A DNA stretch of 64,000 nucleotides from Candidatus Aenigmatarchaeota archaeon (GCA_016931255.1 JAFGFG010000009.1:164661-228660), one strand, 5' to 3'; shown: positions 1,239 to 22,224, numbered from the stretch's first letter. Notes: generated by a model not told the origin, from the letters alone. A program made the numbers and translations.

Positions 1239-4200
1239 ATGGCGCTGAAATGTATCATTGAAAAATCTGGACTCATTGCACTTCTTGCAGTATTTATCAT
1301 TGCAGCTTTCATCATCCCATCCGATGCCGCCATAAGCACTGATACATATTCAGACGTTGAAGTGAACCTTTCCACAGCAGGTAATGACAACTGGACGGAA
1401 TCAGGGAGCTACGAATATTTTTCATTCAACCTCACCAACTCCAATGCAACCCTTGAGATAAACGAGATAAACATAACAGTTCCTTCTTCAGGCGGTTATT
1501 CGCTGTTCACAGTGAACATGAGCACCAAGGGAACAGATAACTCCTCATGGACCTGCTACAGCCAGCAGAACGACAGCGCCGGAAACGTCTCGGTGCTCAC
1601 GTGCAACACCAGCACCGACAACATCACGAACGGCGACACACTTGGAATATTCTTCTTTGCAACCGCAGCCATGACCTCATCGGAGGATGTGCATTACTGG
1701 ACTGTTGAGGCATTCAACCTGACACCGGCAACAGTAACATTGAACCTTTCCAGCGGCATAGACGGCGCAGGCCCGGCAGTGACGCTCTCTACACCAGGAA
1801 CCAATACATGGAATGCAGCAGGCGATGTCGAGTTCGACTTTTCCGCAAACGATTCAAATGCGATGGACAACTGCACCGTATGGCTTGACAATGGAACCGC
1901 ATGGGTATCCACCAATGGAAGCGTAGATTCACCGGTGGACAACACGGTCTACAACATAACCATCAACGGCACAAGCGATGGCTCATACATTTGGAACGTC
2001 GAATGCAGCGACACCTTCGGCAACTCTGCATTCTCAGCCGCCAACCGCACAATCAATGTGGGCAACAGGTCGAACATAATCGTTAGCAGCATAATCCAGC
2101 ACGGCTCCGTAGCTCCGTATGATTATTACAACATAACAGTCAACGTAACGCTGACCAACAACGGAACCGCGAATGTATCCAAAACCACGACTCTGACGGT
2201 TTACTTCGACGATGATAATGCTCCTTTATCCTCTCCTCTGAAAGTCTCAACATACACAATATACAGCTACCAGCTAAACTACAGCGGGAGCTACACAGTC
2301 CAGCCTCAGTTCTACATGAATACAACAGCTGACAGGTACTGGGTGATGGCAGTGGCTGACAGCGGGCTCGTAGAGACGGAGCAGTCCGAAGGCGACAACA
2401 CCCTCACGGAGACATTCGACACCGTGTTCAATGTCAGCATAAATTCAGTGACACGCGGCGCTTTCCTAGTGAAGCCCAATGTCAATGTCACTCAGGATGT
2501 CGTTGTCAATGTGACAGTTCTCTACTCCAACGGAACCCCTGCATCAGGACTGGAGTTGCTGAACTTCAGCATCTACGATACGTGGATTGCCAAGGACATG
2601 GGTAGAACCGAGAGCAATGCGATGAACAGCAGCGCAGTGCTTTCAGACTTCGATGACAGCGCAGATGCTTCAGGCATATACATATTCAATTACAGCGTTG
2701 TCGAGATGCAGTTCTACAGCCACGACGATCTCATAGCTCGTTATGCCGAGTATGGACTGCACAGGATAAGCGTGAAGGCTGTCGGCAACAATACATGCGA
2801 GTACTACACGGGAACCAGCACTGCAAGGATTGCCTACAACATAACAGCGCCTTTCTTGGATGGCGTTGAGGGCATCGATGGTTCCGTGCGTGTAGGCGAT
2901 GAAGACGAGGGTATATTTCAGATAACAAATAACGGAAATGAGAACATCTCCGTCACGATAACAATATCTGCTGATGTTGCCAGTTCAATATTAGACCTTG
3001 ACGACTGGAATGGTACTGGCGGTACGGTAAACACCGTCGGACTCAGTATCGGCCAGATGAAAGCTGTTAATGGTACAGTTCAGGCAATTTCAGCAGGTGT
3101 AACAAATTTCACTCTTAACGTCACCTTCACACACGAAGGGGAATTCTACTTCTTCAATTTCTTGGAGGAGGTTGAAGTCGAGGCAGCCAGCACCGGCGGT
3201 GATGACGACACCACAACCACCACAACCACCACAACACCGACAATCGAATGCACGAGGGACAGCGACTGCGACTCCGATGAGGAGTGCAAGAGCCTTAAGT
3301 GCGTTGAACTGGACTGCGACGATGGCTATGTGGCATCAGACCACGAGTGCAAGCTGAAGTCTGTCTATGAGATAGCATTCAAGAACGCGACTTTCGGTTA
3401 TTCCCTTCTCCAGGATGATGTGCTCACAGCAAAGGTGTTCATCAAGAACACGGGAAACAAGGACATCACAGTCGAGCTGGATACTTCCCTTGAGGTGGAC
3501 GGGCTTGAGATAAACATAAGCCCCTCCGAACAGACCATAGCGGACGGCAAGGAAGGACTTTTCGTGGTGCTTTTCACAACAGCCGAGGACGCCAAGGTCG
3601 GCATAAATGAAGGCACATTCAAGGCAACAACTGATTTCTCCACAGCCAAGGCCGAGCAGGCGTTCACTGTTACAATAGAGCCGCTTCCTGCGACAATAGC
3701 AAAGATAAAGACAGACTATCCCGATTATACATCCAGAGTGAACTCGATGTTCGCAGAACTTGAGGCTGCCAAGGCATGGCTGACAGAGGGAAACCTCACT
3801 CTGGCTGAAGCAAAGGCAGTGGAACTGGAGGCACTTCTCAACAGCCTGACAGACGCAATGGATTCAGAGGACTTTGTCCATGCATCGATGTACATGGATG
3901 ACATTGATGCGCTGCTCAGCGATGCAAGGTCAATACTGGATGCGTCCGCTGTTCCGGGAGCTTCATTCGACTGGAATACAATATTCATGTGGATTATGAT
4001 AGTTGTCGTGGTCGCAGGTGCAGCAGGCCTGCTGTTCTACATGATGGCCCCGACCAAGGGCTATGCACTCGGAAAGGGTTATGTGTCACAGAGCGGGACA
4101 AAGAAGCTCTCAGGCATCATCACATCGATAAGAGAGAGTTTTACCAGCAAGCCGACGAGCGCCGGCCAGATAGTCCAGAAGTACAGGCCGACTGCTTACG

Positions 4201-4286
4201 GCAGTGCGTACAGCAAGCTTCCGATAACTTACAGGCCGCCAGCAAGGACGATGCAGGAACGAATGAAAAAGGCGATGAAGAGGTAG
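1239..4286 (+). CDS. Giant N-glycosylated type-I surface (S-layer-like) membrane protein, 1015 aa
   Basis: An N-terminal hydrophobic signal or anchor is followed by dozens of N-x-S/T sequons and a poly-Thr linker (TTTTTTTTTTPT). After that come a Cys-rich module (CTRDSDCDSDEECKSLKCVELDCDDGY), an IKNTGNKDITVELD beta-domain, a coiled-coil, a C-terminal TM (IFMWIMIVVVVAGAAGLLFYMM) and a basic tail. It is a paralog of 18790..22224. Confidence 0.7.
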   Translation: MALKCIIEKSGLIALLAVFIIAAFIIPSDAAISTDTYSDVEVNLSTAGNDNWTESGSYEYFSFNLTNSNATLEINEINITVPSSGGYSLFTVNMSTKGTDNSSWTCYSQQNDSAGNVSVLTCNTSTDNITNGDTLGIFFFATAAMTSSEDVHYWTVEAFNLTPATVTLNLSSGIDGAGPAVTLSTPGTNTWNAAGDVEFDFSANDSNAMDNCTVWLDNGTAWVSTNGSVDSPVDNTVYNITINGTSDGSYIWNVECSDTFGNSAFSAANRTINVGNRSNIIVSSIIQHGSVAPYDYYNITVNVTLTNNGTANVSKTTTLTVYFDDDNAPLSSPLKVSTYTIYSYQLNYSGSYTVQPQFYMNTTADRYWVMAVADSGLVETEQSEGDNTLTETFDTVFNVSINSVTRGAFLVKPNVNVTQDVVVNVTVLYSNGTPASGLELLNFSIYDTWIAKDMGRTESNAMNSSAVLSDFDDSADASGIYIFNYSVVEMQFYSHDDLIARYAEYGLHRISVKAVGNNTCEYYTGTSTARIAYNITAPFLDGVEGIDGSVRVGDEDEGIFQITNNGNENISVTITISADVASSILDLDDWNGTGGTVNTVGLSIGQMKAVNGTVQAISAGVTNFTLNVTFTHEGEFYFFNFLEEVEVEAASTGGDDDTTTTTTTTTPTIECTRDSDCDSDEECKSLKCVELDCDDGYVASDHECKLKSVYEIAFKNATFGYSLLQDDVLTAKVFIKNTGNKDITVELDTSLEVDGLEINISPSEQTIADGKEGLFVVLFTTAEDAKVGINEGTFKATTDFSTAKAEQAFTVTIEPLPATIAKIKTDYPDYTSRVNSMFAELEAAKAWLTEGNLTLAEAKAVELEALLNSLTDAMDSEDFVHASMYMDDIDALLSDARSILDASAVPGASFDWNTIFMWIMIVVVVAGAAGLLFYMMAPTKGYALGKGYVSQSGTKKLSGIITSIRESFTSKPTSAGQIVQKYRPTAYGSAYSKLPITYRPPARTMQERMKKAMKR

Positions 4287-4287
4287 A

Positions 4288-6375
4288 CTATTCGATAACA
4301 ACCGGGGAATATCCCCTGTGACTTCTGAATCTTTCTTCAAGCTCTTCTATCTTGTCGTGTATTTCCTTAAGGTCGAACTTGTGAACAGTGCTCTCAAGCC
4401 AGTCAGCCTTTGTCTTGAGTATCTCTATGTCCCTCATCACATTCACAACACCGGAATCCTCGACATTCCTGACTGTGGAATCGAATGAGCTAAGCCTTGT
4501 ATTGAGAGCCTTCATGTCAATGCCGAGGGTCTCGTTCTCCTTGTTTACATTGTCTTCAAGTTTCTTTATGCTGTCCTTCAGGGAATTCAGCTGCTTCTGG
4601 AAGCTCTCGAACTGCCTGAGTATCGTTGTCATCTTGGCCTCTGAGGGTTTCATCACGTCCTCCATCTTGGCAACATTCCTGTCAAGAAGGTCTATCTTTC
4701 CTTTTATCTGGTCTCCGAGAAGCTTGCTTATTGTTCCCGGCTGCGCAAGAAGCTGCTCGATTGTGTTCTCCACAATCTCTTCCTTCAGGTCATCAAGCTC
4801 CTTGAGCTTGCCCTTCAGCTGTAGGCTGAAATCATCTAGCCTGTGCTTCGTGTCGTTTCCTACATATTCAGGAAGCCATTCCCTGAGCTCTTCCATCCTC
4901 CTTTCGAGGTCCTTGAACTTATCATAACCGACTCCCTCGCCTATTTCCTTCTCAAGGGATTTTACCCTCTTCTCAAGGGCTTCACTTACACTGCCCTTGC
5001 CGCTGTCAGGGATGTCTATGGGCTTGAGTCCCTCAGCGAGAATGTTGAGCTTTGATGTGCTTTTTTCGAGCTTCTCAATCTTGCTTTTCATTGCATGTAT
5101 CTCTTCAATGGGTATCTCGCCCTTGAACTTCCTGAGTTCCTCAAGCGCATCCGGAGCCATTCCGACGCTTGCCGCCTTCTTCTCGATGCCGGATATCTGC
5201 TCACGGACAGAATTGATGTCCCGGGAAAGTGTGTCTATCTTTTCAAGCAGTCCCGCTCCCCCCTTGTCTGTCTTCAGATCAAGTATATCCTTGCCCTGGT
5301 CGTCTATGGACGTCCTTATGCTTTCAATCATGCTCCTGAGTTCTTCCACATCGCCGTTCTCCTTTTTCTCAGACTTCTTTCCTGACTTCACCTTCACAGC
5401 GCTGAGCTTTTCGACATTGCCTTCAAGCTCTTTGATTTTCCTGATAATGTCTTCAGGAATCGCTTTCTGCGGTTTCTGGGCAGGCTCTCGGAAAGCATCA
5501 ACCCTTTTCTCTATTTTTTCAAACCTTTCAAGAAGTTCATCCGGAGAGTCGTGCGGAAGCCCGTCTATGGAATCATTGAGCTTTTCTATACGGCCTTCCA
5601 TCCGCTCAAGCCTTTTCAGCAGGTCCTTCGATGGTTTTGCATTCACTTCAACGGGCTTTGCGTCTTCCCCGCCGCCGATTGCGGCCTCAAGCAGCTTCAG
5701 CCTGTCAAGAACATCATCATCCATTTCAGTCCCATCCCCCCCTGCTCTGGACTTTATGCCCGAAAGGATACTCTTTTGTTCGCCTATCTCATCCTTCAGC
5801 TTTTCCATCTGAGCTGAGAATCTTTCTATCTTTTCCAGCTTGCTGAGTATGCTTTTAGGGGTGGGTACCGCCTTGCCGGACGGTGCTGATGCCGAAGATG
5901 CATTGACAGGGCCTGCGGTCTCAAGCTTCTCTATCCTTTCCCTGAGTGCCCTGATTTCGCTGCTCCCGGGAGCTGTTACCTTCACTTTCTTCCCCACAGG
6001 AAGTTTTTCGAATTCATCGAGCCTCTCCCTGAGGCTGTCTATTTCACTGTTTATCCCGCTGAGGTCAACATTCGCACCTGGAACTTTCGCAACCTTGGCA
6101 GGCCTTCTGTTAATATCATCCCTGAGTTCCTCAAGTTCTGAAACCAGCTTTTCAGCCTTCTTTATGCTGTCAGCCTTCTCGACCAGCTTCCTTATCTCAG
6201 ACATCTGGTCGGATGTGACAGCTGAATTGCCATCGGAAAGGCTCGCCCTGTCCAGCTCGTTCTTGACATTGATTATGTCCAGCTTGTTCACCAGCTGGAG
6301 ATCCTCGAGCTCAGCCAGCTTATCGTTTATGGATTTCAGAATTTCGCTCTCTGTGTTCTGGTTTTCCTCTTCCAT
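4288..6375 (-). CDS. Large acidic coiled-coil protein (695 aa), possible cytoskeletal or membrane-associated scaffold
   Basis: The protein is nearly all heptad-like E/K/L/D-rich sequence, with no TM segment and no ATPase motifs. It is convergent with, and abuts, the surface protein gene. Confidence 0.55.
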   Translation of the reverse strand: MEEENQNTESEILKSINDKLAELEDLQLVNKLDIINVKNELDRASLSDGNSAVTSDQMSEIRKLVEKADSIKKAEKLVSELEELRDDINRRPAKVAKVPGANVDLSGINSEIDSLRERLDEFEKLPVGKKVKVTAPGSSEIRALRERIEKLETAGPVNASSASAPSGKAVPTPKSILSKLEKIERFSAQMEKLKDEIGEQKSILSGIKSRAGGDGTEMDDDVLDRLKLLEAAIGGGEDAKPVEVNAKPSKDLLKRLERMEGRIEKLNDSIDGLPHDSPDELLERFEKIEKRVDAFREPAQKPQKAIPEDIIRKIKELEGNVEKLSAVKVKSGKKSEKKENGDVEELRSMIESIRTSIDDQGKDILDLKTDKGGAGLLEKIDTLSRDINSVREQISGIEKKAASVGMAPDALEELRKFKGEIPIEEIHAMKSKIEKLEKSTSKLNILAEGLKPIDIPDSGKGSVSEALEKRVKSLEKEIGEGVGYDKFKDLERRMEELREWLPEYVGNDTKHRLDDFSLQLKGKLKELDDLKEEIVENTIEQLLAQPGTISKLLGDQIKGKIDLLDRNVAKMEDVMKPSEAKMTTILRQFESFQKQLNSLKDSIKKLEDNVNKENETLGIDMKALNTRLSSFDSTVRNVEDSGVVNVMRDIEILKTKADWLESTVHKFDLKEIHDKIEELEERFRSHRGYSPVVIE

Positions 6376-6411
6376 TTTATCACTTATATTATTGCTTTTC
6401 TGCTATAAATC

Positions 6412-6921
6412 TTACAATTCAATGCTTGGCGCCACTTCCGGGCAGACCGAACTGATAATCTTCACATCATTAAGGCTGGCTGTTGACGCATTGAAGTCTT
6501 CTGTGACATTGGCCTCTATGAAGGCTGACATCCCCGGTCTCAGGGGGTCTGACGCGCCTATGTCAGTGCTGTCTGTCAGCACGTAATGGTATATGTTTTC
6601 CACTGATGCATTCTCAACTGTCACCTCAAACGTGAAGCTGTAAAGGTCTATGTTTCCGGTGTTCACTATTTTCACCCTTATGAGGTCTGTTTCATTGTTA
6701 GAGACGTTGTAGCTGAAATTGGACATGACGCCGTAATAACCGTAACTGCTGTCGAAATCAAGTCCGGCTGACCGGCATTTCATCTGCTGCTGTGCACTGC
6801 TGCCGGTCTGATTGGACAGCGTGAATGTAAGCTCATACATCCACGGAGCCATCATCGATGCTATTGATATAGATATGACAATCAGGATTACAACTGAAAC
6901 AAGAGGAGAGAGGCCTTTCAT
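6412..6921 (-). CDS. Type IV pilin-like protein (class III signal peptide)
   Basis: The N-terminus MKG|LSPLVSVVILIVISISIA has a short basic leader, then Gly, then a hydrophobic helix, as in archaeal prepilins. The mature part has N-glycosylation sequons. Confidence 0.6.
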   Translation of the reverse strand: MKGLSPLVSVVILIVISISIASMMAPWMYELTFTLSNQTGSSAQQQMKCRSAGLDFDSSYGYYGVMSNFSYNVSNNETDLIRVKIVNTGNIDLYSFTFEVTVENASVENIYHYVLTDSTDIGASDPLRPGMSAFIEANVTEDFNASTASLNDVKIISSVCPEVAPSIEL

Positions 6922-6943
6922 GAATATAATTGCTTTCCTGTCC

Positions 6944-7669
6944 TTAAAATTCTTCAGCCTCTATGGTAATGAAATCAGCACCGGATTCGAGCGTGAATGT
7001 GATGCTGTAGTTGTTGAGGTAGACATATGATGTGTTTATGTAGGCATTGACCATTCCCCTTGGAAGGTTGTAGCCTTCATCAGCAAGCTCTGTGTAACCT
7101 GTGCCGTACATTGAGTCAGGGCTTCCGTCTATTGATATCTCAAGCCTCTCAAGGTCCATCCATGCGTCAAGGTCCTTGTTGTATACCTTCATGAGAAGCT
7201 CGCTTGTGTTATAGGCCTCAGGGGAGGACGAATTTCCTATGTTCTTCAGGTACACTACCAGATGCTGATTCTCGAGTATATGGGCTCCCTGGGTGCTGTT
7301 GGTATACGCGCTTGTGTCAAGGTTGGCGCCTACCATGAGGTTGCCCATCCTCTGATAGCTTCTCGGAGAGACTATCATGCTGCTGGTCTCCATTGTCCAT
7401 TTGATGCTGTCAGTGTCACTATCGAGCAGGAGCTCGCCGCCGCCGAGGTTTATGTAAATCGTCCTCTTGCTGCCCTTGCCTTCTGATGCGACTTCCTGTA
7501 TCTTCTCGTCAAGGTCCAGCATCATGGACTTGGTCTGCTCGAACACCGATGCGTCCTGCATGGACTTTATAACAGGTGTTGCCATGCTGTAGACAAGGAA
7601 TACGAGTGTCACGGTGATTGCGAGGAATATCACTTCTGTGGTGATTGCTAAACCTTTCATAATCATCAT
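6944..7669 (-). CDS. Type IV pilin-like protein (class III signal peptide)
   Basis: The N-terminus MMIMKG|LAITTEVIFLAITVTLVFLVY is followed by a beta-rich extracellular domain. It is co-oriented with, and tightly spaced to, its neighbours. Confidence 0.6.
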   Translation of the reverse strand: MMIMKGLAITTEVIFLAITVTLVFLVYSMATPVIKSMQDASVFEQTKSMMLDLDEKIQEVASEGKGSKRTIYINLGGGELLLDSDTDSIKWTMETSSMIVSPRSYQRMGNLMVGANLDTSAYTNSTQGAHILENQHLVVYLKNIGNSSSPEAYNTSELLMKVYNKDLDAWMDLERLEISIDGSPDSMYGTGYTELADEGYNLPRGMVNAYINTSYVYLNNYSITFTLESGADFITIEAEEF

Positions 7670-7677
7670 TTGTTCTT

Positions 7678-8268
7678 TCAGGCTAATATCTCTTTCCTGA
7701 CTGAATTGTCCCCGCTGCTCACAGATATGAGAGAGTACACGGATGTCTTGTTTGTCAGGACGTCCGCGCTGAATGTTTCCCCGTAAACTTCCATCGCAAG
7801 CAATAATGTATAATCAGGTGTGCTGAAGGTTGTCGAGTTCTGTGTGCCTGCATCCGCATAAAGCGTCTTGTAGGTTCCGGATATGTTTATTCCCAGTGTC
7901 ACCGGGCTGTCCATGAAATTGCCTGCAGTCACATTCATGCTTCCTGCCATGGGCTCGAACAGCACCCACAGGCAATCAAGCTCAGCACCTGAATCCGATG
8001 CTGCGCTGAGTGCATAAACCGTGAAATTTGTAAGCACGCCTGCTGCATTGGAAGCATTGACGCCGACACCTGCTGCATGGGGAATTTCCATCTCAAGGTT
8101 TTTAGCGATATTCTCTATTCCCGCTGATGATGTCGATACGAGCCTTACCGCAGGCGTGAGACCGAAGAACAGCAGCATGCATATGGCCAGTGCGCCGACA
8201 AGGAAGAACTGGCCTTTCTTACCTGAATACATATAGAATAACCTCCATCGGCTGGTAAGTATCGTCAC
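7678..8268 (-). CDS. Type IV pilin-like protein; the likely true start is the internal Met at 8232 (MYSGKKG|QFFLVGALAICMLLF)
   Basis: A class III signal peptide motif (KKGQ followed by a hydrophobic stretch). The start is ambiguous between 8268 and 8232. Confidence 0.55.
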   Translation of the reverse strand: MTILTSRWRLFYMYSGKKGQFFLVGALAICMLLFFGLTPAVRLVSTSSAGIENIAKNLEMEIPHAAGVGVNASNAAGVLTNFTVYALSAASDSGAELDCLWVLFEPMAGSMNVTAGNFMDSPVTLGINISGTYKTLYADAGTQNSTTFSTPDYTLLLAMEVYGETFSADVLTNKTSVYSLISVSSGDNSVRKEILA

Positions 8269-8593
8269 CTGAAAGAATTATCCTTGATGTCCACACATCG
8301 CTGCTTTCAGGCACGCTTCCTGTGCATGAACCCGAATAATCGCATATGGAAACAGCATGGCTTAGTCCTGAGAGATATCCGGTTTCCTCTATGGCATCAT
8401 CTATTGACATGGTGTCACCCTGCGCGGCAAACTCCCTCAGCATTCCTTTCATGTAGATGTCATTGAGCGCTTTTTGTCCATTGTCCGAGAAGTCAGCAGG
8501 TTTTTCCATGTATGTTGCTGATATGACTGCCAGGAAGAGCAGTATAACCACTCCGGCAAGCATTGACTCAACTGTCTTCCATTGTCCTTTCAT
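8219..8593 (-). CDS. Type IV pilin-like protein (124 aa). The start is re-assigned to an internal Met and shares its T with the upstream TAA stop (TAATG)
   Basis: The sequence MKG|QWKTVESMLAGVVILLFLAVISATYM begins at aa 68 of the tracked ORF. The long ORF N-terminus has no features. The ATG at 8593..8591 shares one base with the stop of gene 8593..9282. Confidence 0.6.
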   Translation of the reverse strand: MKGQWKTVESMLAGVVILLFLAVISATYMEKPADFSDNGQKALNDIYMKGMLREFAAQGDTMSIDDAIEETGYLSGLSHAVSICDYSGSCTGSVPESSDVWTSRIILSGDDTYQPMEVILYVFR

Positions 8594-9282
8594 TACCACA
8601 ACCTCACTGTTATGTTTACAGTCCCGTCTTCCCATAGCCTTCCGGACTTCCGGAATGCGAAGACATCCCTGTCTGTTATCGGAACCGGCGGGCCGCATGT
8701 CATTTCCGTGCCGTTGTCTACCAGGACATTGAAGTCCATATTCAGCCCTATGGAATCCTTCACAGACTGGTAGCTGCTGTTGATGACATGACACAAATCA
8801 AGGTTCTTTGAGTCTGAGAAAAATTCAATTATCTCCGTAGGCCATAATTTTGTCTGGTTCTCGTCTGTCTCAGCCAGTGATGCGCCGCACTGCACAGGCA
8901 TGCCGTAGTCCAGTGACTCTATGAAGAAGAAGTTGTCGCCTGTTTTGATGTCTCCGGTCCAGTACAGCCTGTCTCCTGATATCATGCATGGCAAGGATGA
9001 CCCGGAGTATCTTGAGAGGACAATCCTTGTGGAATCCTCAGTGTCTCCGGTCCAGTTCATGTAAGCCCACATCACTGCGTCATCTGCATCAGAAGGCGCG
9101 TCCAGATAGGCTGCATTGGAGATGGAATCAGCTGAAAGATATGACACCACATTCTCCCCTGCCCTGATGGCGTAGTCAGCCTTTTCTGTTACAGCTCCGC
9201 TGTTCATCATGCCGTAATATGCAAAGGCCCATGTCGAGAACATGAGAAACATGAATATGGCGATTATCCAGTCGATGCGCAT
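8593..9282 (-). CDS. Membrane-anchored extracellular protein of unknown function (pilus operon member)
   Basis: An N-terminal TM (IDWIIAIFMFLMFSTWAFAYY) is followed by an extracellular domain with sequons and Cys. It is translationally coupled to the downstream pilin. Confidence 0.5.
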   Translation of the reverse strand: MRIDWIIAIFMFLMFSTWAFAYYGMMNSGAVTEKADYAIRAGENVVSYLSADSISNAAYLDAPSDADDAVMWAYMNWTGDTEDSTRIVLSRYSGSSLPCMISGDRLYWTGDIKTGDNFFFIESLDYGMPVQCGASLAETDENQTKLWPTEIIEFFSDSKNLDLCHVINSSYQSVKDSIGLNMDFNVLVDNGTEMTCGPPVPITDRDVFAFRKSGRLWEDGTVNITVRLW

Positions 9283-9285
9283 ACT

Positions 9286-9840
9286 TTATTTTTCTCTTAG
9301 CGCGATTATATGCTTTCTCAGCTTTGCTGTCAGTCTGTCCCATTTCAGCCAGCACAGCCATATAACCAGCACAACTGCAAGCAAACCCAGTTGCCACAGC
9401 CAGTCGTGGACGAACATTGCCGTGTCGTAGCCATACAATGATTCTGTGAAGACAACCGCAAGAATCCTCAGGAGGTTGGCAGCATATATGAGCGGGATTC
9501 CCACAGCAAGGCCGAGCAGCTTCCTCCTGTAGCCTGCTTCCATGGTCGCGAACATGAGTGCGAACAGCAGCATCATGGATTTCCAGCCTGTGCAGTCCTC
9601 TCCTATATAGAAAGTGAAGGGTTCTCCCGGACCGCATACGAGTACGAGTCCCATGCTGCTGACGTCGAATCCGGAAGCTGATATGAGCCATTCGGAATGG
9701 GCTGCGACTGCCTGCTGGAGAGGAAGCATGCTTATGCCAAGCACAATCACGAGGTAAAGCGGAACTGAAAGCAGGATGAGCCTTACCACGAAGAGCAGCA
9801 GTCTGACTAGTTTTTCATTCTCAGGAACTTTCAGAACCAT
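9286..9840 (-). CDS. Short exosortase/archaeosortase-family-like polytopic membrane protein (putative)
   Basis: It has about five TM helices. The segment EDCTGWKSMMLLF resembles the C-[ST]-G-x-[RK]-S Cys motif of exosortases, and the downstream AANLLRI has the conserved Asn and Arg. It is the first gene of the pilin-like operon. Confidence 0.4.
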   Translation of the reverse strand: MVLKVPENEKLVRLLLFVVRLILLSVPLYLVIVLGISMLPLQQAVAAHSEWLISASGFDVSSMGLVLVCGPGEPFTFYIGEDCTGWKSMMLLFALMFATMEAGYRRKLLGLAVGIPLIYAANLLRILAVVFTESLYGYDTAMFVHDWLWQLGLLAVVLVIWLCWLKWDRLTAKLRKHIIALREK

Positions 9841-9882
9841 ATAAATTATAATGGCGTTATATCTTTATAGAAAGGTGATGTA

Positions 9883-10188
9883 ATGACAAGCAGATGCGAG
9901 AAAGCTGTTCATGACATTTTCCCTGTAGCCAGGGCAATGATAGCCAAGAGGCTTGTTGATGTCTACAAGTTTTCCCAGACCAGGTCAGCGAAATACATGG
10001 GCATATCCCAGCCTGCCATATCGCAGTACAGGAAGAACATGCGCGGCAATAAGAAAACCTCATTCATGGATGACGCAGGATTTCTGGATGTGATAAATGA
10101 AATTGCAAAAGGCATAGCCGAGGGAAGCATAAAGCCCGAGCAGGTAGATGACAGTATGTGCAGGATATGCAGGGAAGTTCAGAAGTAA
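9883..10188 (+). CDS. Small HTH transcriptional regulator
   Basis: The segment YMGISQPAISQY is a helix-turn-helix. It is divergent from the pilin operon, and an SD (aggtga) lies 6 nt upstream. Confidence 0.55.
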   Translation: MTSRCEKAVHDIFPVARAMIAKRLVDVYKFSQTRSAKYMGISQPAISQYRKNMRGNKKTSFMDDAGFLDVINEIAKGIAEGSIKPEQVDDSMCRICREVQK

Positions 10189-10234
10189 ACCCAAACATAT
10201 TTAAGTTATTATTACAATTTATTACAATTCGATT

Positions 10235-14897: not shown

Positions 14898-17069
14898 CTA
14901 ACTTTTTCCGAAATTCCTGCCTACCAATGAGAGATCATCTATGCATATAACGCCATCTTTGTTAAGGTCAGCTAATGGATTCCATTTGTCCTGTCTTTGC
15001 GGTAAACAATCGCATGAACCGCCTACAATGTAATCCGATGCACATGATTTCATTGATTTGGCTACTATTACGAGGTCTTTAACATCCACTATATCGTCAC
15101 CGTTGGCATCGCCTTTAGGCTTGCATTCACAACTTCCATAACAGTAATCGTCAATGTTGCAGTCTCCATCACTTTCACACTCAGCACCGCACTGTATGAT
15201 GTCGCATGTGTGTGTCAGCGTAACAGTTCCAGTTGTGCATACATCATTGGCTTCGTCACAGCTTGATGTGAATCCCGGGAACCAGTCCCATGTGAATGCT
15301 ATGCTGTCAGGGTCATTCGTGCATGTGGCTATTGAGAGAATATTATTGGCTGAACAATCAACTGCAATTCCAGCTTGGCAATCCAGAAGTGCGTCACATG
15401 TCTCACTGCCGTCGCACCAAAGTTCATTGTCACAGTTCCCATTATTTGGTGTATTTACTATCACATCATTTATTTCATCACAACTGTCGTCAGTGCATGT
15501 TACACCATCGTCTACAACAGGAGGAGTTCCTGCCTGACAGTCAAGGAGTGCGTCACAGAATTCATTCCCATTACAGAAAAGAGTGTCATCACAGAGAGCG
15601 TTATTTACCGAGTTCTCACATGAGTCTGTTTCCTCGTCGCACGAATCAACAGTGCAGCCTACGCCGTCCGAGCAGTCTCTGGATTCGCAACTGCATTCCC
15701 CAGACTGGCACACATCATTCACTGTGCAGAAGTTCCCGTCGTCGCAGGGCGTCCCATCATCCTTGTTGCTGCTCGTACCGGTGTCGACCCACTGCGTGTC
15801 CGTCACGGAGTACTCGCATCCTGAACCTCCACATATGTAATCCCTGTATTCCTCTTCCTTCTGCTCTTTTTCAGTGCACTCGCCGGTGGATACCCACTGT
15901 ATCTCTCCTGTGTCGTACCAGACGTCTGATGCATTACAATCCTCTGTGAGATAGAAACATGAACAGTCGCTCTCGCACGAGCCGCCGTAATTGTAGACAT
16001 CGCCTACACACTTGTCGCTGCACGGATTCTGGGAGTCGCATTCCGCACCGCACTGGGAAACGTTGCATGTGCTCGTTATGCTTACGGTTCCGGTAGTGCA
16101 CACGTCGTTCTCCTCATCGCATGCCGATACGAATCCAGTGAAAACATCCAGTGTCCAATCGTAGCCGTCAGGTGTGTAACTGCATATTGAAATCGGTTCT
16201 ATGTCATTGTTGGTACAGTCAAACGGCTGGAAGAAGCATCCGTCAGGACCCATGCATTCACCGTCATGTCCTTCGCACCAAAGACCGCTTTCAGGAAGCA
16301 GACACAATGCATCCCCATCGTCATCAATCACTCCATTGCAATCGCTATCATTTCCATCACATACTTCATCCACGCTTTCATCAGCGCTTGCACCAGGGTT
16401 CGTGGAGCAGTCAGCAGTGCTTGTTCCCGAACACTCGACCAGTCCCAGTCCGCACTTTCCAATGCCGTCGCATGTCTGGTTTATGTTCAGGCCCTGATAA
16501 GTGAAATCCTCATCACTCAATCCATCGCAGTCATCATCGAGGGCGTTGCAGGTTTCCGATGCAGAATTGTCACGCGTACCGCCCGGGTTCGACCAGCATG
16601 ATGCTGTATTTACATTAAAACACTCGACTTTACCAAAGCCACATGTACCGATTCCATAGCATCCCTGTCCGACATATCTAGACTCTTCATAAACAGGATC
16701 ATCATAATAAAATTCTTCGTCTGTACTGCCGTCGCAGTCATTGTCAAATGTATCGCATATTTCAACGCTAGAGTTATCATGACTTCCACCAGGATTTGTC
16801 CAACAATCTACCTCATTTGTAAAGTTCTCACACTCGACTTTACCAAAGCCACATGTACCGATTCCATAGCATCCCTGTCCGACATATCTAGACTCTTCAT
16901 AAACAGGATCATTATATTCGTCTATGTATCCATCTCCATCATTGTCGATACCATCGCAAATCTCAGTAGCGGCTTTGACATTAGTTGGAGCAAAAAGAAG
17001 AACTAAAGTTACGACTAAAAGAAGAGCCAGTGGAATTGGGCTAGATTTTGTCATCTTAATCCCATCCAT
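14898..17069 (-). CDS. Secreted Cys/Asp-rich protein with MopE-like C-x-DNDCDG-x-DE repeats, internally duplicated Cys modules and a C-terminal dockerin type-I module
   Basis: It has a Sec signal peptide (cleavage after VKA) and four repeats of the form EICDGIDNDGDGYIDE / EICDTFDNDCDGSTDEE. The segment YNDPVYEESRYVGQGCYGIGTCGFGKVEC is duplicated. The C-terminus reads DANGDDIVDVKDLVIVAKSM...DLNKDGVICIDDLSLVGRNF, a paired Ca-binding dockerin repeat. Confidence 0.7.
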   Translation of the reverse strand: MDGIKMTKSSPIPLALLLVVTLVLLFAPTNVKAATEICDGIDNDGDGYIDEYNDPVYEESRYVGQGCYGIGTCGFGKVECENFTNEVDCWTNPGGSHDNSSVEICDTFDNDCDGSTDEEFYYDDPVYEESRYVGQGCYGIGTCGFGKVECFNVNTASCWSNPGGTRDNSASETCNALDDDCDGLSDEDFTYQGLNINQTCDGIGKCGLGLVECSGTSTADCSTNPGASADESVDEVCDGNDSDCNGVIDDDGDALCLLPESGLWCEGHDGECMGPDGCFFQPFDCTNNDIEPISICSYTPDGYDWTLDVFTGFVSACDEENDVCTTGTVSITSTCNVSQCGAECDSQNPCSDKCVGDVYNYGGSCESDCSCFYLTEDCNASDVWYDTGEIQWVSTGECTEKEQKEEEYRDYICGGSGCEYSVTDTQWVDTGTSSNKDDGTPCDDGNFCTVNDVCQSGECSCESRDCSDGVGCTVDSCDEETDSCENSVNNALCDDTLFCNGNEFCDALLDCQAGTPPVVDDGVTCTDDSCDEINDVIVNTPNNGNCDNELWCDGSETCDALLDCQAGIAVDCSANNILSIATCTNDPDSIAFTWDWFPGFTSSCDEANDVCTTGTVTLTHTCDIIQCGAECESDGDCNIDDYCYGSCECKPKGDANGDDIVDVKDLVIVAKSMKSCASDYIVGGSCDCLPQRQDKWNPLADLNKDGVICIDDLSLVGRNFGKS
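16621..16922. repeat. Intragenic direct repeat. Two identical 82-bp copies (16621-16702 and 16841-16922) lie 220 bp apart
   Basis: The copies begin cactcgactttaccaaagccacatgtaccgattccatagcatccctgtccgacatatctagactcttcataaacaggatc and match exactly. Each encodes one of the duplicated YNDPVYEESRYVGQGCYGIGTCGFGKVEC segments. Confidence 0.85.
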
Positions 17070-17253
17070 ATTAGATTCTTGGTTACTTGGATAATTAATA
17101 TTTATCGATTGTATTTAATACTGTGAAGTAGTTACTTATAAAGATTTCCACCCTTTTTTAAGGTGAAAAGCTTTCCAAAAATATGATTTATGTTTAAACG
17201 GTCATGTATAAATCTTATACAAGCTTATAAAACTTACTCAAATAATTTGAATT

Positions 17254-17676
17254 ATGGATTGGCTTATAATGCCAAAAAGACAGTTCTTATACGATTTCTT
17301 ATACATTTTCATATTGAAATTCAGACAAAAATCACTTTTTACTTTTGTTGGACGGGGGATGCTGCTGATGTCTGACATTCCAATGCGCTACTATAAAATC
17401 ATTGATATTCATGGCAGGCTGAAAACTGTTTACAGGCCGGTTCATATGATGCAGCCCTATGTTGATACGGGATTGGCTATGGAAAGACTTTCTGATTATG
17501 ATGGCTGGAGACGTTGTTACAAAGGTATCAGGAAAGCTGGCGGTGGAAGAATTGAGGTTGAGCCTTTCAAATGGGATCACGAGAAGATGGCAGAGGCTTA
17601 CGCGCCACTCATGGCCGCTTACAGAAAAATACTTTCAGGTCAGATATTACCGCCAGAATATAGGAGTGTAGCGTGA
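17254..17676 (+). CDS. Hypothetical protein. The start probably lies downstream at about 17359 (MLLMSDIPMRYY...), based on the composition shift
   Basis: The first about 35 codons are AT-rich promoter-like DNA. The remainder has coding-like composition and no recognisable domain. Confidence 0.35.
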   Translation: MDWLIMPKRQFLYDFLYIFILKFRQKSLFTFVGRGMLLMSDIPMRYYKIIDIHGRLKTVYRPVHMMQPYVDTGLAMERLSDYDGWRRCYKGIRKAGGGRIEVEPFKWDHEKMAEAYAPLMAAYRKILSGQILPPEYRSVA

Positions 17677-17724
17677 CAAATCCCGCATGTTTCACGATTC
17701 CTAAAAATATAGAGGTGAAATAAA

Positions 17725-17919
17725 ATGGAAATTAAATTAAAACGTGACTGGAGAGGAAATTACAAAGGAATGGAAATAACTGGTCAGGAACATGAAGTCG
17801 AGGACGTTGGCATGTACAAGAACATCATAGAGATGTACATGAAGGAAAACGATATCGAGAAGATTGAAGGCAACTCCGGATTTGACCTCGCAAATAGACT
17901 TCGCAGAGGTGACTATTGA
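17725..17919 (+). CDS. Mini-protein 1 of 5 (64 aa) in a tandem paralogous array
   Basis: Its own SD (agaggtga) lies 8 nt upstream. The stop overlaps the next start (ATGA). Confidence 0.5.
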   Translation: MEIKLKRDWRGNYKGMEITGQEHEVEDVGMYKNIIEMYMKENDIEKIEGNSGFDLANRLRRGDY

Positions 17920-18098
17920 TGGCAGATGGGGAAGTCAAAGTCACCATTACCGAAGATATCAAGTATAAGGGAGTCTTCAGGAAGAGCACAGAGTACATAA
18001 CTGAGGTGAAGATTGAAGGTGAAGGCGACCTTGGGAAATTAGCAAACAACTTCGGAACTTACATTGATAGCAGAAGCATGAATTCATATGAGGAGTGA
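17916..18098 (+). CDS. Mini-protein 2 of 5 (60 aa)
   Basis: An SD (gaggtga) lies upstream. The sequence GEVKVTITEDIKYKG...EGEGDLGKLANNF is paralogous to neighbours 3 and 4. Confidence 0.5.
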   Translation: MMADGEVKVTITEDIKYKGVFRKSTEYITEVKIEGEGDLGKLANNFGTYIDSRSMNSYEE

Positions 18099-18302
18099 TT
18101 GCATATGGGAGAGATAGAAATAAAGGTGAGAGGAAAAGTGGAAGAAAGACTATTCGGAGAAGGAGTGAAAGTCTCCGGCTCTGGAGAATTCTCGACCGAT
18201 GACCACAGTTATAGTGAGACATTAGGCTCATCTGTTCCGCATTATGCAAGCAGGTTGGCTGAAGTTTCATCTTCTCGGCATAACGAGAAGTATGAGAAGT
18301 GA
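18099..18302 (+). CDS. Mini-protein 3 of 5 (67 aa)
   Basis: An SD (aggagtga) lies upstream. The sequence GEIEIKVRGKVEE...GEGVKVSGSGEF...HYASRLAEV is present. Confidence 0.5.
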   Translation: MHMGEIEIKVRGKVEERLFGEGVKVSGSGEFSTDDHSYSETLGSSVPHYASRLAEVSSSRHNEKYEK

Positions 18303-18306
18303 TAAA

Positions 18307-18519
18307 ATGAATTACAGCGGAAGTTTCAATTTTGAAGGAGAAGCATACAGAAGAAGTGATGACCATTCAGGAGTAAGAGGTTCAGGTAATCTCTACAGCA
18401 ACGATAAAGACATCGCAATAAATCTTTCGCACTCAGTACCAGATGCCGCACAGTGGGCGGCAGGACATGCATCGGACATGGTTCGGAGCATAAGATTAAG
18501 TAAGGAAGCACATAGGTGA
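18307..18519 (+). CDS. Mini-protein 4 of 5 (70 aa)
   Basis: The start is re-set to the Met that follows an SD-like gagaagtga. The sequence SGSFNFEGEAYRR...GSGNLYSNDKD...GHASDMVRSIRL is present. Confidence 0.45.
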   Translation: MNYSGSFNFEGEAYRRSDDHSGVRGSGNLYSNDKDIAINLSHSVPDAAQWAAGHASDMVRSIRLSKEAHR

Positions 18520-18525
18520 ATAGAA

Positions 18526-18660
18526 TGTTCGGTGGTAGATTCAGATTCAGCTTTGATGACATAGATGGTCATCGGGATAACTACAGGTACTCTGCATCAG
18601 CTTCTCATGGCTACCTGAACAGAATACTCGACAGGAAGCTAAGAGGTCTTTACATTTAGG
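18526..18660 (+). CDS. Mini-protein 5 of 5 (44 aa, below the ORF-track cutoff)
   Basis: An SD (aggtga) lies 6 nt upstream of the ATG. The sequence MFGGRFRFSFDDIDGHRDNYRYSASASHGYLNRILDRKLRGLYI shares the C-terminal [YL]-[AL]-[SN]-R-[LI] motif with the other four. Confidence 0.4.
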
Positions 18661-18789
18661 GCGGCGACGCCCTTTTGAATTTTTGTATCATGGTAAGCCA
18701 ATAAATGATTCAGTCGGATATTTCTTATTTCGTGCTAGAAAATTGATATTAAGAAAGACGCCCAATTATTTAATAACAGGTGTTAAACC

Positions 18790-21700
18790 GTGGCTTTGGA
18801 AGATGGCGCGACCAAAAACAGAGTTGTTGTTATAGCCTTGAGCATAGCGCTCGTATTCGCTGTTTATTTCATTCCGGCTAATTTCACGGGTTTTGTGGCT
18901 TATGCTGTTACTGAGGAAACAGTTGATGGGGAAGGAACGACTCTGGGTGATGGTACTCTTCAAGGAGCTACAGATTACACAGACACTAATTCATTCGACG
19001 GAAACTTTGAGTACATAGAAGAAAATATCAGTAGAAGAGTTAAATGGGACTACGTCTTTAATACAAATTATAATGACACAATACCAGCTAGAATGGAATT
19101 TTTTGCATATTATGTAAATTTTGCAGAATTTGTGATGTTTGGTATTTATAATTATGAATTTTCTCAGTGGGATGTATTGAATCAAACTACACAAAAAAAT
19201 CAAAATTTAAATCTTACATACGTGTTCTCTTGGGATGTAAAGAATCTGACAGATTATATAAATCCAGTAAATGGTGAAATCAAGATATACTTTGAAGACG
19301 TCAACTCCTCGTCCATTCAAAATCTATTTTCAATCGACTACCTCGCCATCAACGTCACTGTGTCGCCGCTGTATGACCTTTCCTATGTGCTGACGAACTC
19401 ATCTGGGGATGCGCAGTCGGACGGCGTCAATGTGACCAGAAGCGGCTACCTCAATGCCTCTGCGCTCTGGAACCTCTCAGGTGTGGAGCAGTCACTTGCA
19501 TGGCTCAATGCAAGCGGCTATGTGAGCACATACAGCTTCCCTCACTACGATTCCAATGACAACTGGACGAATCATACTTTCAACTTCACGAACTATACGC
19601 TGTGCCCGGTTGCCGGGAATGTCAGTGTGAGGCTGAAGGCTTACGATGAGTTCTACCAGCAGAACTTCACGCAGGAGACGCGGTACTTCTACCTGTGGGG
19701 GCAGAGTGCACTTGGAAGCACGATGCTGGTGAATGCCTCGATATACGATGAGAATTATACGATTGCATCCGGCTCTGTTTATCAGGTTTCCTGCATTGTC
19801 ATGGACGCCAACAGCAGTGCTGCTGTTCCCGGCCATAACGTCACTTTCTACGAGGACCATGCTTTCATAGGGTCGGCACTTACGAATTCTACGGGATGGG
19901 CGGGTTTTGTCCATACAGCTTCCAGTGGTGCGGGAAGCCATGACATCATCTGCAACATAACCGATGATGGTTCCGTTTATTATACACTCGGCGGGGCGAA
20001 CACCACCAACACGACAGTCTATTACATCGATGACGTCTACCCGCCTTATTTCACAGAGGACTGGTTCGAGTATGAGGGGCAGAGGCTTGCCAATACATCC
20101 GGCTATTATGAGGCACCTTTCTACAGGAACGTGACACTCGTGGTCAATGCCAGCGACAACACGACGTACGTCACCAGCGTCATAGCGGAGGTAACGCACA
20201 ACGCAGGCACCCATATCAATCATACGCTGGCTGAAGGAGGAGATGGTTTATGGAGGATGGACTTTGACAATTCAGATGCGACAATGTCACTGAACGCCTC
20301 CCTCACATTCCACTTCTATTATCAGGATGCAGGAGGCAACTGGAACAACACGAATGTCGTCGGGCCAGGAGGCAGCCTGAGCCCGAACTGGACCATGCAC
20401 ATAAACCTCACATCCTGGAATTCGTCCGCAGTGTACAACCGCGGCGAGAACCTCACATTCTTCGCTTCGGACATCCACTGGTTTGCCTTTGATGAGGCCA
20501 ACTGGTCGCTGAATGTGAGCAAGTACAACCAAACAGGCAGCAATCTCTTTACTGGCGGCACGCAGGGATACTTCAATTACAGCGTGAATGCTACAGACCC
20601 TCTGGGCAACTGGTCATTACTGGTCAACACTTCATGGATGGACAACAACGGCACTGCGGACTTCACTTTCAATGTAACGGACCAGCTTTCCGTTGCCTTC
20701 ACATCGCCTGCAGGGACAGTCTTCCAGCCGAGTCAGTCCATTAGTCCAATAGTCACTGTGAAGAATGTGAGAGGAGGGATTGTCCCGTGGAACGTCACTG
20801 TCAACGTATCGTGCAATGGCGGGGAATACATGACGCTACTGAGGTCAGGCAACAGCTACATAATGAACGCATCTGACAACTCGCATACATGCACTGCTCC
20901 GGGTTCTTACAGTGCGTCCTTCAGCATCTCGGCGAATGTCACATGCCCGTACAACAACAGCAATGTGCTTGAGACTCTGTCACTCTCGACTGTGTCTGAA
21001 GGCGGCGGGTCGAATCCACCGGGAAGCAGCGGAAGCACTGTCTACATACCGCCTGCCTGCAACTGCACTGAATGGAAGGACGTGGACTGCGGCTCAGGGA
21101 ACTGCACTGAGGACGAGATGTATCAGGAAAGGGTGTGCGTTCCTTCCGGTTGCGAGGCCGAGGCGAGATGCATAGCTGTATCGGAGTGCAGGGACAGGAA
21201 GAACTTCCAGATAACGTCATACACTGAAGTGGTTGAGGTTACGCAGGGAAAGAACGGCACTGCATTGTTCACAGTGGAGAACACAGGCAACAAGGACTTC
21301 AGCCTTGCGATAAAACTTGACCATGACTGCTGCAGCATGTTTCCGAGATTCAATGAGTTCAGTCTTCCACAGAAGACAAGCGTTAGCATTCCGATAGTCA
21401 TTCATGCACCGCTTTCACAGGAGCCGGGTGAATACACGATGGAGGTGAAATTCACGGAACAGGATTTCGAGAAGACGGAGACCGTGAGGATTATTGTCAA
21501 TCCCAATGAGATGATTGATGAGCTCAGCAGTTTCAGGTCTCTTCTCAACAGCCTGCGGGAGCAGATTGATGTACTGGAGAATGCCGGCGTGGATGTCACA
21601 GGCCTCAGGAGGCAGCTGGACGAGCTGGCAGCAGCCATAGATTCCGCCCAGAGAAGCACGATTGAAGACGACCTGAATGCATTTGGCGCAATGCTGGACA

Positions 21701-22224
21701 GCATCCAGTCGGTTTCTGATTCAGTGAATGAGTCGCTTCTTCCTGTGAAACTGCAGGGATTCTTCTACATGTCATGGTACATGTTCGCAGCGATTTTAAT
21801 GGCTGCTCTGGTTGAGGTGTACCTGCTGAGACAATTCATGCTTCCTCCTGTTATCAATGAGGGAAGAATAAGAAGGCTTCGCGGAAAGCTTGATGATATC
21901 ACAAGTGCAAAGAAAGACACCCTGCGCAAGTACAGCAACAGGAAGATAGATGAGAAGAGCTTCGGGACGCTCTCCGAGAAATACTCCAGCGAAACAAGCA
22001 TGGTGAATTCTGAGATCATCAGGCTGGAGGAAGAGAAGAGGAACGCTCTGTCATCAGGGCCCAGTTTCAGCGGCTTCGCACGATGGCTGCTTCACAGGAA
22101 GACAGAAGAGGAAAAGAAGAGGGAGACGTCATCAAAGAGCAAGGCGAAGAACACGAAGATGATGGATTTCCAGAAAAAGTATCTCGACGCCAAGAAGCGG
22201 CAGGAAGAGATGGACAGAAGATAG
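18790..22224 (+). CDS. Giant N-glycosylated type-I surface membrane protein (1144 aa). It starts with GTG and is a paralog of 1239..4286
   Basis: An N-terminal TM (VVVIALSIALVFAVYFIPA) is followed by a very high density of N-x-S/T sequons. The C-terminal part has a Cys-rich module (PACNCTEWKDVDCGSGNCTEDEMYQERVCVPSGCEAEARC), VENTGNKDFSLAIKLD, a coiled-coil, a TM (FFYMSWYMFAAILMAALVEVYLL) and a K/R/E-rich tail. Confidence 0.7.
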   Translation: MALEDGATKNRVVVIALSIALVFAVYFIPANFTGFVAYAVTEETVDGEGTTLGDGTLQGATDYTDTNSFDGNFEYIEENISRRVKWDYVFNTNYNDTIPARMEFFAYYVNFAEFVMFGIYNYEFSQWDVLNQTTQKNQNLNLTYVFSWDVKNLTDYINPVNGEIKIYFEDVNSSSIQNLFSIDYLAINVTVSPLYDLSYVLTNSSGDAQSDGVNVTRSGYLNASALWNLSGVEQSLAWLNASGYVSTYSFPHYDSNDNWTNHTFNFTNYTLCPVAGNVSVRLKAYDEFYQQNFTQETRYFYLWGQSALGSTMLVNASIYDENYTIASGSVYQVSCIVMDANSSAAVPGHNVTFYEDHAFIGSALTNSTGWAGFVHTASSGAGSHDIICNITDDGSVYYTLGGANTTNTTVYYIDDVYPPYFTEDWFEYEGQRLANTSGYYEAPFYRNVTLVVNASDNTTYVTSVIAEVTHNAGTHINHTLAEGGDGLWRMDFDNSDATMSLNASLTFHFYYQDAGGNWNNTNVVGPGGSLSPNWTMHINLTSWNSSAVYNRGENLTFFASDIHWFAFDEANWSLNVSKYNQTGSNLFTGGTQGYFNYSVNATDPLGNWSLLVNTSWMDNNGTADFTFNVTDQLSVAFTSPAGTVFQPSQSISPIVTVKNVRGGIVPWNVTVNVSCNGGEYMTLLRSGNSYIMNASDNSHTCTAPGSYSASFSISANVTCPYNNSNVLETLSLSTVSEGGGSNPPGSSGSTVYIPPACNCTEWKDVDCGSGNCTEDEMYQERVCVPSGCEAEARCIAVSECRDRKNFQITSYTEVVEVTQGKNGTALFTVENTGNKDFSLAIKLDHDCCSMFPRFNEFSLPQKTSVSIPIVIHAPLSQEPGEYTMEVKFTEQDFEKTETVRIIVNPNEMIDELSSFRSLLNSLREQIDVLENAGVDVTGLRRQLDELAAAIDSAQRSTIEDDLNAFGAMLDSIQSVSDSVNESLLPVKLQGFFYMSWYMFAAILMAALVEVYLLRQFMLPPVINEGRIRRLRGKLDDITSAKKDTLRKYSNRKIDEKSFGTLSEKYSSETSMVNSEIIRLEEEKRNALSSGPSFSGFARWLLHRKTEEEKKRETSSKSKAKNTKMMDFQKKYLDAKKRQEEMDRR

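Follow-up and report, generated by a model that had tools for sequence, protein, structure and literature searches.

Introduction

Transmembrane (TM)-anchored surface-layer (S-layer) proteins of archaea follow a general plan of signal peptide, glycosylated domains, helical stalk and C-terminal TM helix. The sorting signals of PEP-CTERM and PGF-CTERM proteins lie at the very C-terminal end and consist of a short motif, a TM segment and a small number of basic residues. Here we describe two large predicted surface proteins, P1 and P2, encoded on a 64,000-nucleotide stretch of DNA from a Candidatus Aenigmatarchaeota archaeon (GCA_016931255.1, JAFGFG010000009.1:164661-228660; this whole stretch is called the window below), together with the protein family defined by the C-terminal cassette that the two have in common.

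Like SlaB of the Sulfolobales and tetrabrachion of Staphylothermus, P1 and P2 appear to combine a signal peptide, glycosylated beta-sandwiches, a helical membrane-proximal stalk and a single C-terminal TM helix, and in each case the proteins would belong to the protein envelope of a wall-less archaeon. The stalk of SlaB and tetrabrachion is a long trimeric or tetrameric coiled coil, whereas that of the cassette is predicted to be a short intramolecular three-helix bundle and, unlike SlaB and tetrabrachion, cassette proteins carry a long, conserved, basic cytoplasmic tail. Identity as a SlaB-type anchor was rejected, there being no sequence or structural match to SlaB and no identified SlaA-like partner for P1 or P2; identity as a canonical S-layer protein was rejected as well, with no match to S_layer_N (PF05123) or S_layer_C (PF05124) in P1, P2 or 24 family modules. 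The Haloferax S-layer glycoprotein (PGF-CTERM) and the PACE-CTERM proteins of Pacearchaeota (NF033506) resemble P1 and P2, as predicted here, in being heavily N-glycosylated, immunoglobulin (Ig)-rich proteins with a C-terminal hydrophobic anchor, but archaeosortase substrates have a C-terminal tripartite signal, and in cassette proteins, which lack it, the TM helix is followed by a conserved tail of ~80 aa. The three-helix stalk of Fap1 (NR-alpha) from Streptococcus parasanguinis is a fold-level analogy only, at 6–8% identity, and differs in organism, in anchoring (LPXTG versus TM) and in the type of glycosylation. A class II fusogen (archaeal Fsx1/HAP2) was also considered and rejected, the likeness being confined to a generic Ig domain. 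The Micrarchaeota S-layer protein uses another S-layer domain than the cassette proteins do (bioRxiv 10.1101/2021.04.28.441871).

The general design of a glycosylated, Ig-rich protein with a helical stalk and a C-terminal TM helix is already familiar in archaea, and what is new here is the family and its cassette. Little is known of the way in which DPANN cells make their envelope and interact with hosts, and no Aenigmatarchaeota culture was found in the literature searched.

Results and discussion

P1 and P2 have a homologous C-terminal cassette

A preliminary description of the window had presented P1 and P2 as paralogous, N-glycosylated surface proteins with a shared C-terminal stalk and anchor and divergent ectodomains. 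The layout that it gave is found in both open reading frames (ORFs): an N-terminal hydrophobic segment, a Cys cluster, the NTGNKD strings exactly as reported, one C-terminal TM segment and a net-basic tail (Table 1). Compared directly as whole proteins by BLASTP, P1 and P2 yield a collinear C-terminal high-scoring segment pair with E = 0.072, which is not significant pairwise. Smith-Waterman shuffle tests gave z = 8.2 (p about 1e-5) for the Cys plus beta segment, z of 3–4 when the beta-domain or the helices were taken separately, and no signal for the TM helix plus tail.

Homology of P1 and P2 was established through their relatives. A two-sequence P1-clade profile, made from the P1 module and P0001 (its sole match in a word-indexed protein search), matches P2 at E = 0.005 among the 415 ORFs of the window. 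Run against the same set of ORFs, a family profile built from 147 modules, with no P2-derived sequence included, gave 331 bits for P1, 89.5 bits (E = 4.5e-27) for P2 and 11 bits for the next ORF. The P2 alignment forms a single collinear stretch (profile positions 34–435) across the Ig-like domain and the helical bundle, in support of the shared stalk and anchor that had been claimed. The controls scored far lower, with -18.6 bits for the reversed P2 module and maxima of 2.7 bits among 500 locally and 8.2 bits among 500 globally shuffled modules. When the parts of P2 are compared with the family profile one by one, the Ig-like domain carries the strongest signal (46 bits, E = 6.9e-14) and the helices a lesser one (14.5 bits, E = 2.6e-4), and the similarity is thus significant by profile and not confined to low-complexity helix. 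Pairwise, the P2 core module matches 77 of 153 family proteins at E < 1e-3, P1 orthologs included (BLASTP of P2 against these, E 1e-8 to 2e-6), with P1 itself among the weakest matches.

These comparisons indicate that P1 and P2 are distant paralogues with a homologous C-terminal cassette. The earlier term 'paralogous' holds in the sense of homology by family profile, but only for a distant relationship: the profile-guided alignment puts their identity at about 15%, and all family members are about equally distant from P2. Further paralogues, for which a survey had been proposed, did not emerge nearby: the 147-module profile detected no third copy of the cassette in the window, and the fetched flanks contained none.

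The alternative is that the C-terminal likeness arose by chance or composition from a generic CARDB NTGN strand, a low-complexity helix and a TM segment. It would agree with the insignificant direct BLASTP comparison, with the lack of similarity in TM helix and tail, and with the recurrence of an N-x-G-N strand motif at P1 301–310, at P1 563–569 and in ORF 6412–6921. We consider it extremely improbable, given the collinear profile match and its much lower controls, the fact that no other window ORF exceeds 11 bits even where a CARDB-like domain is present, and the agreement in order of the predicted folds of P1 and P2; on the shuffle and reversal controls against the family profile it was ruled out.

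Predicted fold of the cassette

AlphaFold2 (AF2) models of the P1 and P2 modules, computed as monomers on family alignments, both consist of a beta-sandwich, then three consecutive helices of ~25 residues, all with a predicted local distance difference test (pLDDT) score above 90, and then the TM helix. The membrane-proximal domain is predicted to be a PapD/ASH/CARDB/NEW3-like, seven-stranded Ig beta-sandwich with a V-x-V-x-N-T-G-N strand. Structural matches of the sandwich include HYDIN, CEP192 and MSP; for the cassette as a whole, the PDB has no similar structure. At the sandwich position, the Pfam matches of 24 family modules are to Cep192_D3 (11), NEW3 (9), HYDIN-Ig (7) and CARDB (6), and two members pass the Pfam thresholds (P0131, NEW3, 42.8 bits; P0069, CARDB, 23.2 bits); the NTGNKD domain of P1 and P2 is below gathering score, matching only a HYDIN-like Ig model at E about 0.2. 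The suggestion that this domain might be CARDB-like thus turned out to be right at the level of fold, as judged by AF2, structural matches and Pfam matches in relatives. CARDB (PF07705), NEW3/NPCBM_assoc (PF10633) and ASH/PapD-like Ig domains have the sandwich fold and a V-x-V-x-N-x-G strand in common with it, but the likeness is at domain level only, and the bundle, TM helix and tail of the cassette are not covered by these families.

A third 'VNTGN' strand, IVNTGNIDLYSF, lies inside a CARDB-like domain of a 169-aa pilin-like protein encoded at 6412–6921 on the minus strand. Because this ORF carries VNTGN yet matches the cassette profile weakly (E = 0.09), the motif is a general mark of CARDB-type Ig domains and is not specific to the cassette.

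The helical region, which had been called a coiled coil, is present in both proteins, but the models predict an antiparallel three-helix bundle of ~85 aa and not a long coiled coil. Of the Cys-rich knot that the two were said to share, a cluster in each protein is what stands. AF2 gives a confident small Cys-rich domain in P1, which conforms to the family consensus C-T-x-D-x-x-C...C...C...C...H-x-C; the P2 segment alone scores 0.5 bits against the family profile, which is not significant, and is modelled at a pLDDT of about 50–60. The mini-domain is optional in the family, with 5 or more Cys in 50 of the 101 modules scored. The cytoplasmic tails are likewise alike in being net basic, but they have no detectable sequence homology: the P1 tail has 16 K+R, 2 D+E and the post-TM string GYALGKGY, and that of P2 has 33 K+R and 21 D+E and is without the family GY motif.

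Topology and sequons

By hydropathy, P1 and P2 each have exactly two hydrophobic segments, the first N-terminal and the second about 80–130 residues short of the C-terminus. The ectodomains are rich in N-X-S/T sequons, as had been stated: P1 has 44 against 15.2 +/- 3.4 in composition-matched shuffles (z = 8.5) and P2 has 56 against 17.3 +/- 3.6 (z = 10.8). Nearly all of them fall within the ectodomain and none lies beyond the C-terminal TM segment of either protein. Their density is 4.3–4.9 per 100 aa, versus 0.2–1.1 in cytoplasmic housekeeping proteins encoded in the window. From this distribution we infer that P1 and P2 are N-glycosylated. Cleavage of the N-terminal segment, which distinguishes a type I protein from a doubly anchored one, is suggested by the sequence, and in P1 it may occur between PSDA and AI.

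The cassette defines an unannotated family

An exhaustive HMMER search of 1.84 billion representatives with the two-sequence P1-clade profile recovered at least 358 clusters at 50% identity (E <= 1e-3), 212 of them at E <= 1e-10, in keeping with the modular surface-protein family that had been proposed. Nearly all matches are to the C-terminal 300–400 aa of proteins that are mostly 800–1400 aa long (median 1201 aa). All named members are annotated 'hypothetical protein' and come from metagenome-assembled genomes (MAGs) of Candidatus Aenigmatarchaeota, except for one that bears the label Nanoarchaeota and another with the label 'archaeon'. For the cassette, neither Pfam nor NCBIfam has a model that reaches threshold, and a literature search found no description of the family. 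The cassette defines a large unannotated protein family, mainly from Aenigmatarchaeota. Metagenome scans with alignment A1 returned P1-clade loci only, and no cassette was found in viral contigs scanned with alignment A1; family alignment A3 was too divergent for pattern scanning of metagenomes.

The features of P1 recur across the family. An N-terminal hydrophobic segment is present in 77 of 89 full-length members, the C-terminal TM segment is single, and the sequon median is 5 per 100 aa. The tail has a median length of 78 aa and carries a net positive charge in every one of the 89, which speaks for an N-out/C-in topology. In 93 of 149 representatives (about 62%) the TM segment is closely followed by a G[YF]-x3-6-G[YF] motif, in the form P-x-x-G-Y-x-x-x-G-Y with a distal Y-x-x-G-Y-x-K; it is not universal, and its absence does not exclude membership.

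The ectodomains proved less exchangeable than had been thought. A jackhmmer search from the P1 ectodomain recovers 112 of 150 family representatives, and 74 of 89 full-length members (about 83%) share at least half of it. Ectodomains of this type are chains of Ig-like domains (Big_13, CARDB, DUF11, MG2); in P1 a CARDB domain at residues 291–390 (nt 2109–2408) is above the Pfam gathering score (E = 5.4e-6). The picture of a shared cassette with divergent ectodomains holds for P2 and for 10 of 89 full-length members (about 11%), which carry ectodomains unrelated to the P1 type. Because about 83% of full-length members share the P1-type ectodomain, the sequences argue that the family is mostly inherited whole and that the ectodomain is replaced occasionally. 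The P2 ectodomain yields a sub-threshold Pfam Ig-like match at 638–734 only; it has no match to the cassette family by jackhmmer and none to PDB sequences, and it is not matched by the P1-ectodomain profile.

Proposed function of P1 and P2

The window is part of an archaeal chromosome and encodes a TATA-binding protein, a family-B DNA polymerase, RpoB, a split RpoA'/A'', a tRNA-intron endonuclease and geranylgeranylglyceryl phosphate synthase. Because its DNA ligase and that of the Candidatus Aenigmatarchaeota chromosome CP070804.1 share 73% identity and the nearest relative of P1 is a protein from a Candidatus Aenigmarchaeota MAG, these sequences place the source organism among the Aenigmatarchaeota, within the DPANN archaea. 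Nothing points to a polymer wall, in agreement with the earlier remark that such proteins would suit a cell lacking one.

We suggest that P1 and P2 are probably Sec-exported, heavily N-glycosylated, type-I anchored cell-coat or adhesion proteins of this wall-less archaeon. The Sec-type signal peptide would export the protein, extracellular N-X-S/T sites would become N-glycosylated, and the C-terminal TM helix with its positive-inside tail would fix the protein in the cytoplasmic membrane in type I orientation. The three-helix bundle and the Ig domain would together make a rigid stalk of roughly 8 nm, which may lift the glycosylated chain of Ig-like domains above the membrane to give a protein coat and a contact surface.

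Several points weigh against this proposal. The evidence that suggests a coat or adhesin function is architectural. No gene for the oligosaccharyltransferase AglB was seen in the window, and the family member P0023 is found among unrelated housekeeping genes. The AF2 models are monomeric, and the helices could form intermolecular coiled coils in an oligomer. In P2, the Cys region, the TM segment and the tail, each taken alone against the family profile, are without sequence homology to the family. No close relative of P2 was found in a word-indexed protein search with its module or in JGI metagenome contigs, and no P2 orthologs were detected in these searches, so that conservation of P2, and hence its function, is unsupported.

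P1, which every related genome examined has in a conserved, syntenic form, is the likelier of the two to be the main coat (S-layer-like) protein. For P2, with the shared anchor and a lineage-specific ectodomain, the role of an accessory adhesin or of a host-contact protein is the more likely one. As specific roles, a lattice-forming S-layer and an adhesin are not told apart by sequence data, and we hold each of the two only tentatively.

If P1-type proteins form the true S-layer lattice of Aenigmatarchaeota, subunit and anchor would be fused in one chain, the three-helix region would oligomerise as the stalks of SlaB or tetrabrachion do, and P2 would be a minor variant inserted in the lattice. 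In favour of this, P1 is built along the same general lines as TM-anchored archaeal S-layer proteins, all related genomes seen have P1 in a conserved and syntenic form, and no canonical secreted S_layer_N/C protein was found in the window. This possible but rather doubtful role has to be set against the lack of any sequence or fold match to a solved S-layer protein, the intramolecular bundle predicted by AF2, and the presence of two members in the window alone where lattice proteins usually number one or two per genome.

If instead both proteins are host-attachment adhesins of an episymbiotic DPANN cell, their ectodomains would set host specificity and the cassette would be a portable, recombined anchor. 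P2 and the 10 of 89 full-length members that put non-P1-type ectodomains on the cassette speak for this, the absence of P2 orthologs is consistent with fast turnover, and P1 adjoins a conserved cluster of pilin-like and exosortase-like genes. In Nanoarchaeota the highest densities of non-synonymous single-nucleotide polymorphisms occur in hypothetical cell-surface proteins (PMC6142677), which we count in its favour. On the other hand, the ectodomains of P1 orthologs are about as conserved (34–43% identity) as their modules (37–44%), with no sign of ectodomain-specific diversification; no lectin, carbohydrate-binding module or other binding domain was identified in P1 or P2; and the symbiotic lifestyle of the organism is itself inferred. 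We therefore judge it to be about as uncertain as the lattice.

In a more speculative reading, P1-type proteins may be the Aenigmatarchaeota cell-coat (S-layer) protein, the cassette with its GY-motif tail a DPANN-specific transmembrane coupler between the glycoprotein coat and an intracellular partner, and the cassette may have been reused as a portable anchor for grafted ectodomains, as in P2, changing host or surface specificity. A constant anchor can take exchanged ectodomains, and a searchable cassette helps to annotate dominant surface proteins in MAGs, to choose antigens for labelling or enrichment and to interpret densities in cryo-electron tomography.

Genomic setting

Orthologs of P1 with 33–40% identity and conserved synteny occur in six fetched loci (L001–L003, L005–L007), always downstream of a DNA ligase gene and adjoining a conserved block. 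This block encodes a thioredoxin (Trx)-like membrane protein, a small ORF, a small exosortase/archaeosortase-family protein, five pilin-like proteins and a coiled-coil protein of 600–700 aa; in the window it is inverted as a whole (4288–11362) relative to the related loci.

Table 1. Features of P1 and P2 and genes of the P1-adjacent block (positions in the window).
Feature	Position	Strand	Basis or remark
P1, 1015 aa, ATG start, common Ig-chain ectodomain type	1239..4286	+	ORF; identical to collection protein P0002
P1 N-terminal Sec-type signal peptide (predicted), residues 1-30	1239..1328	+	Hydropathy peak 1-34; orthologs with n-h-c N-termini
P1 ectodomain, residues 31-655, 41 sequons, Ig-like domain chain	1329..3203	+	Sequon count; Pfam
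P1 Cys-rich mini-domain C671-C704, 6 Cys	3249..3350	+	Cys positions; AF2 pLDDT about 88-93
P1 membrane-proximal Ig-like beta-sandwich, residues about 712-814, IKNTGNKDITVELD at 735-748	3372..3680	+	
P1 antiparallel three-helix bundle (predicted), residues about 817-903, conserved exposed sequon NLT	3687..3947	+	
P1 C-terminal TM helix, residues 907-939	3957..4055	+	Hydropathy; AF2 model helix 275-299
P1 cytoplasmic tail, 76 aa, family motif GYxxGKGY, basic end	4056..4286	+	Net +14
P2, 1144 aa, ectodomain unique	18790..22224	+	GTG start, AGGTG 8 nt upstream; family profile match
P2 N-terminal signal peptide or anchor, residues 1-40	18790..18909	+	Hydropathy segment about 7-40
P2 ectodomain, residues 41-745, 51 sequons, unrelated to P1 type	18910..21024	+	Sequon count
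P2 Cys-rich segment C757-C800, 8 Cys	21058..21189	+	Position equivalent to family Cys knot
P2 membrane-proximal Ig-like beta-sandwich, residues about 803-904, VENTGNKDFSLAIKLD at 829-844	21196..21501	+	AF2 pLDDT above 90
P2 three-helix bundle (predicted), residues about 907-989	21508..21756	+	AF2 helices 199-223, 229-250, 254-285, pLDDT above 90
P2 C-terminal TM helix, residues 990-1018	21757..21843	+	Hydropathy; AF2 model helix 288-309
P2 cytoplasmic tail, 126 aa, K/R/E-rich, four predicted helices	21844..22224	+	Net +12
Coiled-coil protein, 695 aa	4288-6375	-	P1-adjacent block
Five small proteins with pilin-like N-terminal helices and many sequons	6412-9282	-	Includes overlapped ORF 8219-8794
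Exosortase/archaeosortase-family protein, 184 aa	9286-9840	-	TIGR04178, 66 bits versus cut-off 23
ORF, 101 aa	9883-10188	+	P1-adjacent block
Trx/GILT-like membrane protein	10235-11362	+	P1-adjacent block

The presence of this exosortase-family gene in the block adjoining P1 in all relatives raises the question of whether P1 and P2 are substrates of the enzyme, their TM helix and tail being exchanged for a lipid anchor, as is done to PGF-CTERM proteins by ArtA. The model for PACE-CTERM putative S-layer proteins (NF033506) does match 7 of 24 modules, but weakly and far below cut-off, and no CTERM model is above cut-off in P1, P2 or the family modules. The TM segment is followed by tails of 76 aa in P1 and 126 aa in P2, against a family median of 78 aa with conserved motifs; no conserved Pro-containing motif precedes it; and P2 and P0023 have no adjacent exosortase-family enzyme. 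We therefore regard processing of this kind as improbable, and an archaeosortase sorting signal was rejected on the long post-TM tail and the missing sorting motif before the TM segment. No neighbour of the gene at 9286–9840 was found to encode a C-terminal sorting signal.

P2 comes after an AT-rich stretch with five tiny ORFs. These are tightly packed (17725–18659, plus strand), about 45–70 aa long, with a GC content of 0.32–0.43 against 0.48 for the window, and the stretch closes with a hairpin, GGGCGGCGACGCCC, and then a T-run, immediately upstream of P2; it is possibly an islet of foreign or fast-evolving genes. Between P1 and P2, at 14898–17069 on the minus strand, lies the gene for a 723-aa secreted and extremely Cys-rich protein in which MopE-like C-x-D-x-x-D-N-D-C-D-G motifs recur and whose C-terminus is dockerin-like (D-x-N-x-D-G); L001 has a homologue at the equivalent relative position.

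Elsewhere in the window, a 308-aa protein (40716–41642, plus strand) combines an N-terminal helix-turn-helix with S_layer_C (PF05124); it has no signal peptide and does not qualify as a conventional S-layer protein. A 448-aa DUF11/CARDB-like protein (56093–57439, minus strand) has a mid-protein TM segment and zero sequons. It is followed by two tRNA-Pro genes (57543–57713, plus strand) and a prepilin-peptidase-like A24 gene (57789–58637, plus strand). A phage-integrase-family gene (59949–60632, minus strand) belongs to a region of lower GC content (52–60 kb, about 0.45), possibly an integrated element. Two divergent glyceraldehyde-3-phosphate dehydrogenase-like genes lie less than 12 kb apart, at 26089–27132 and 37701–38732, both on the minus strand.

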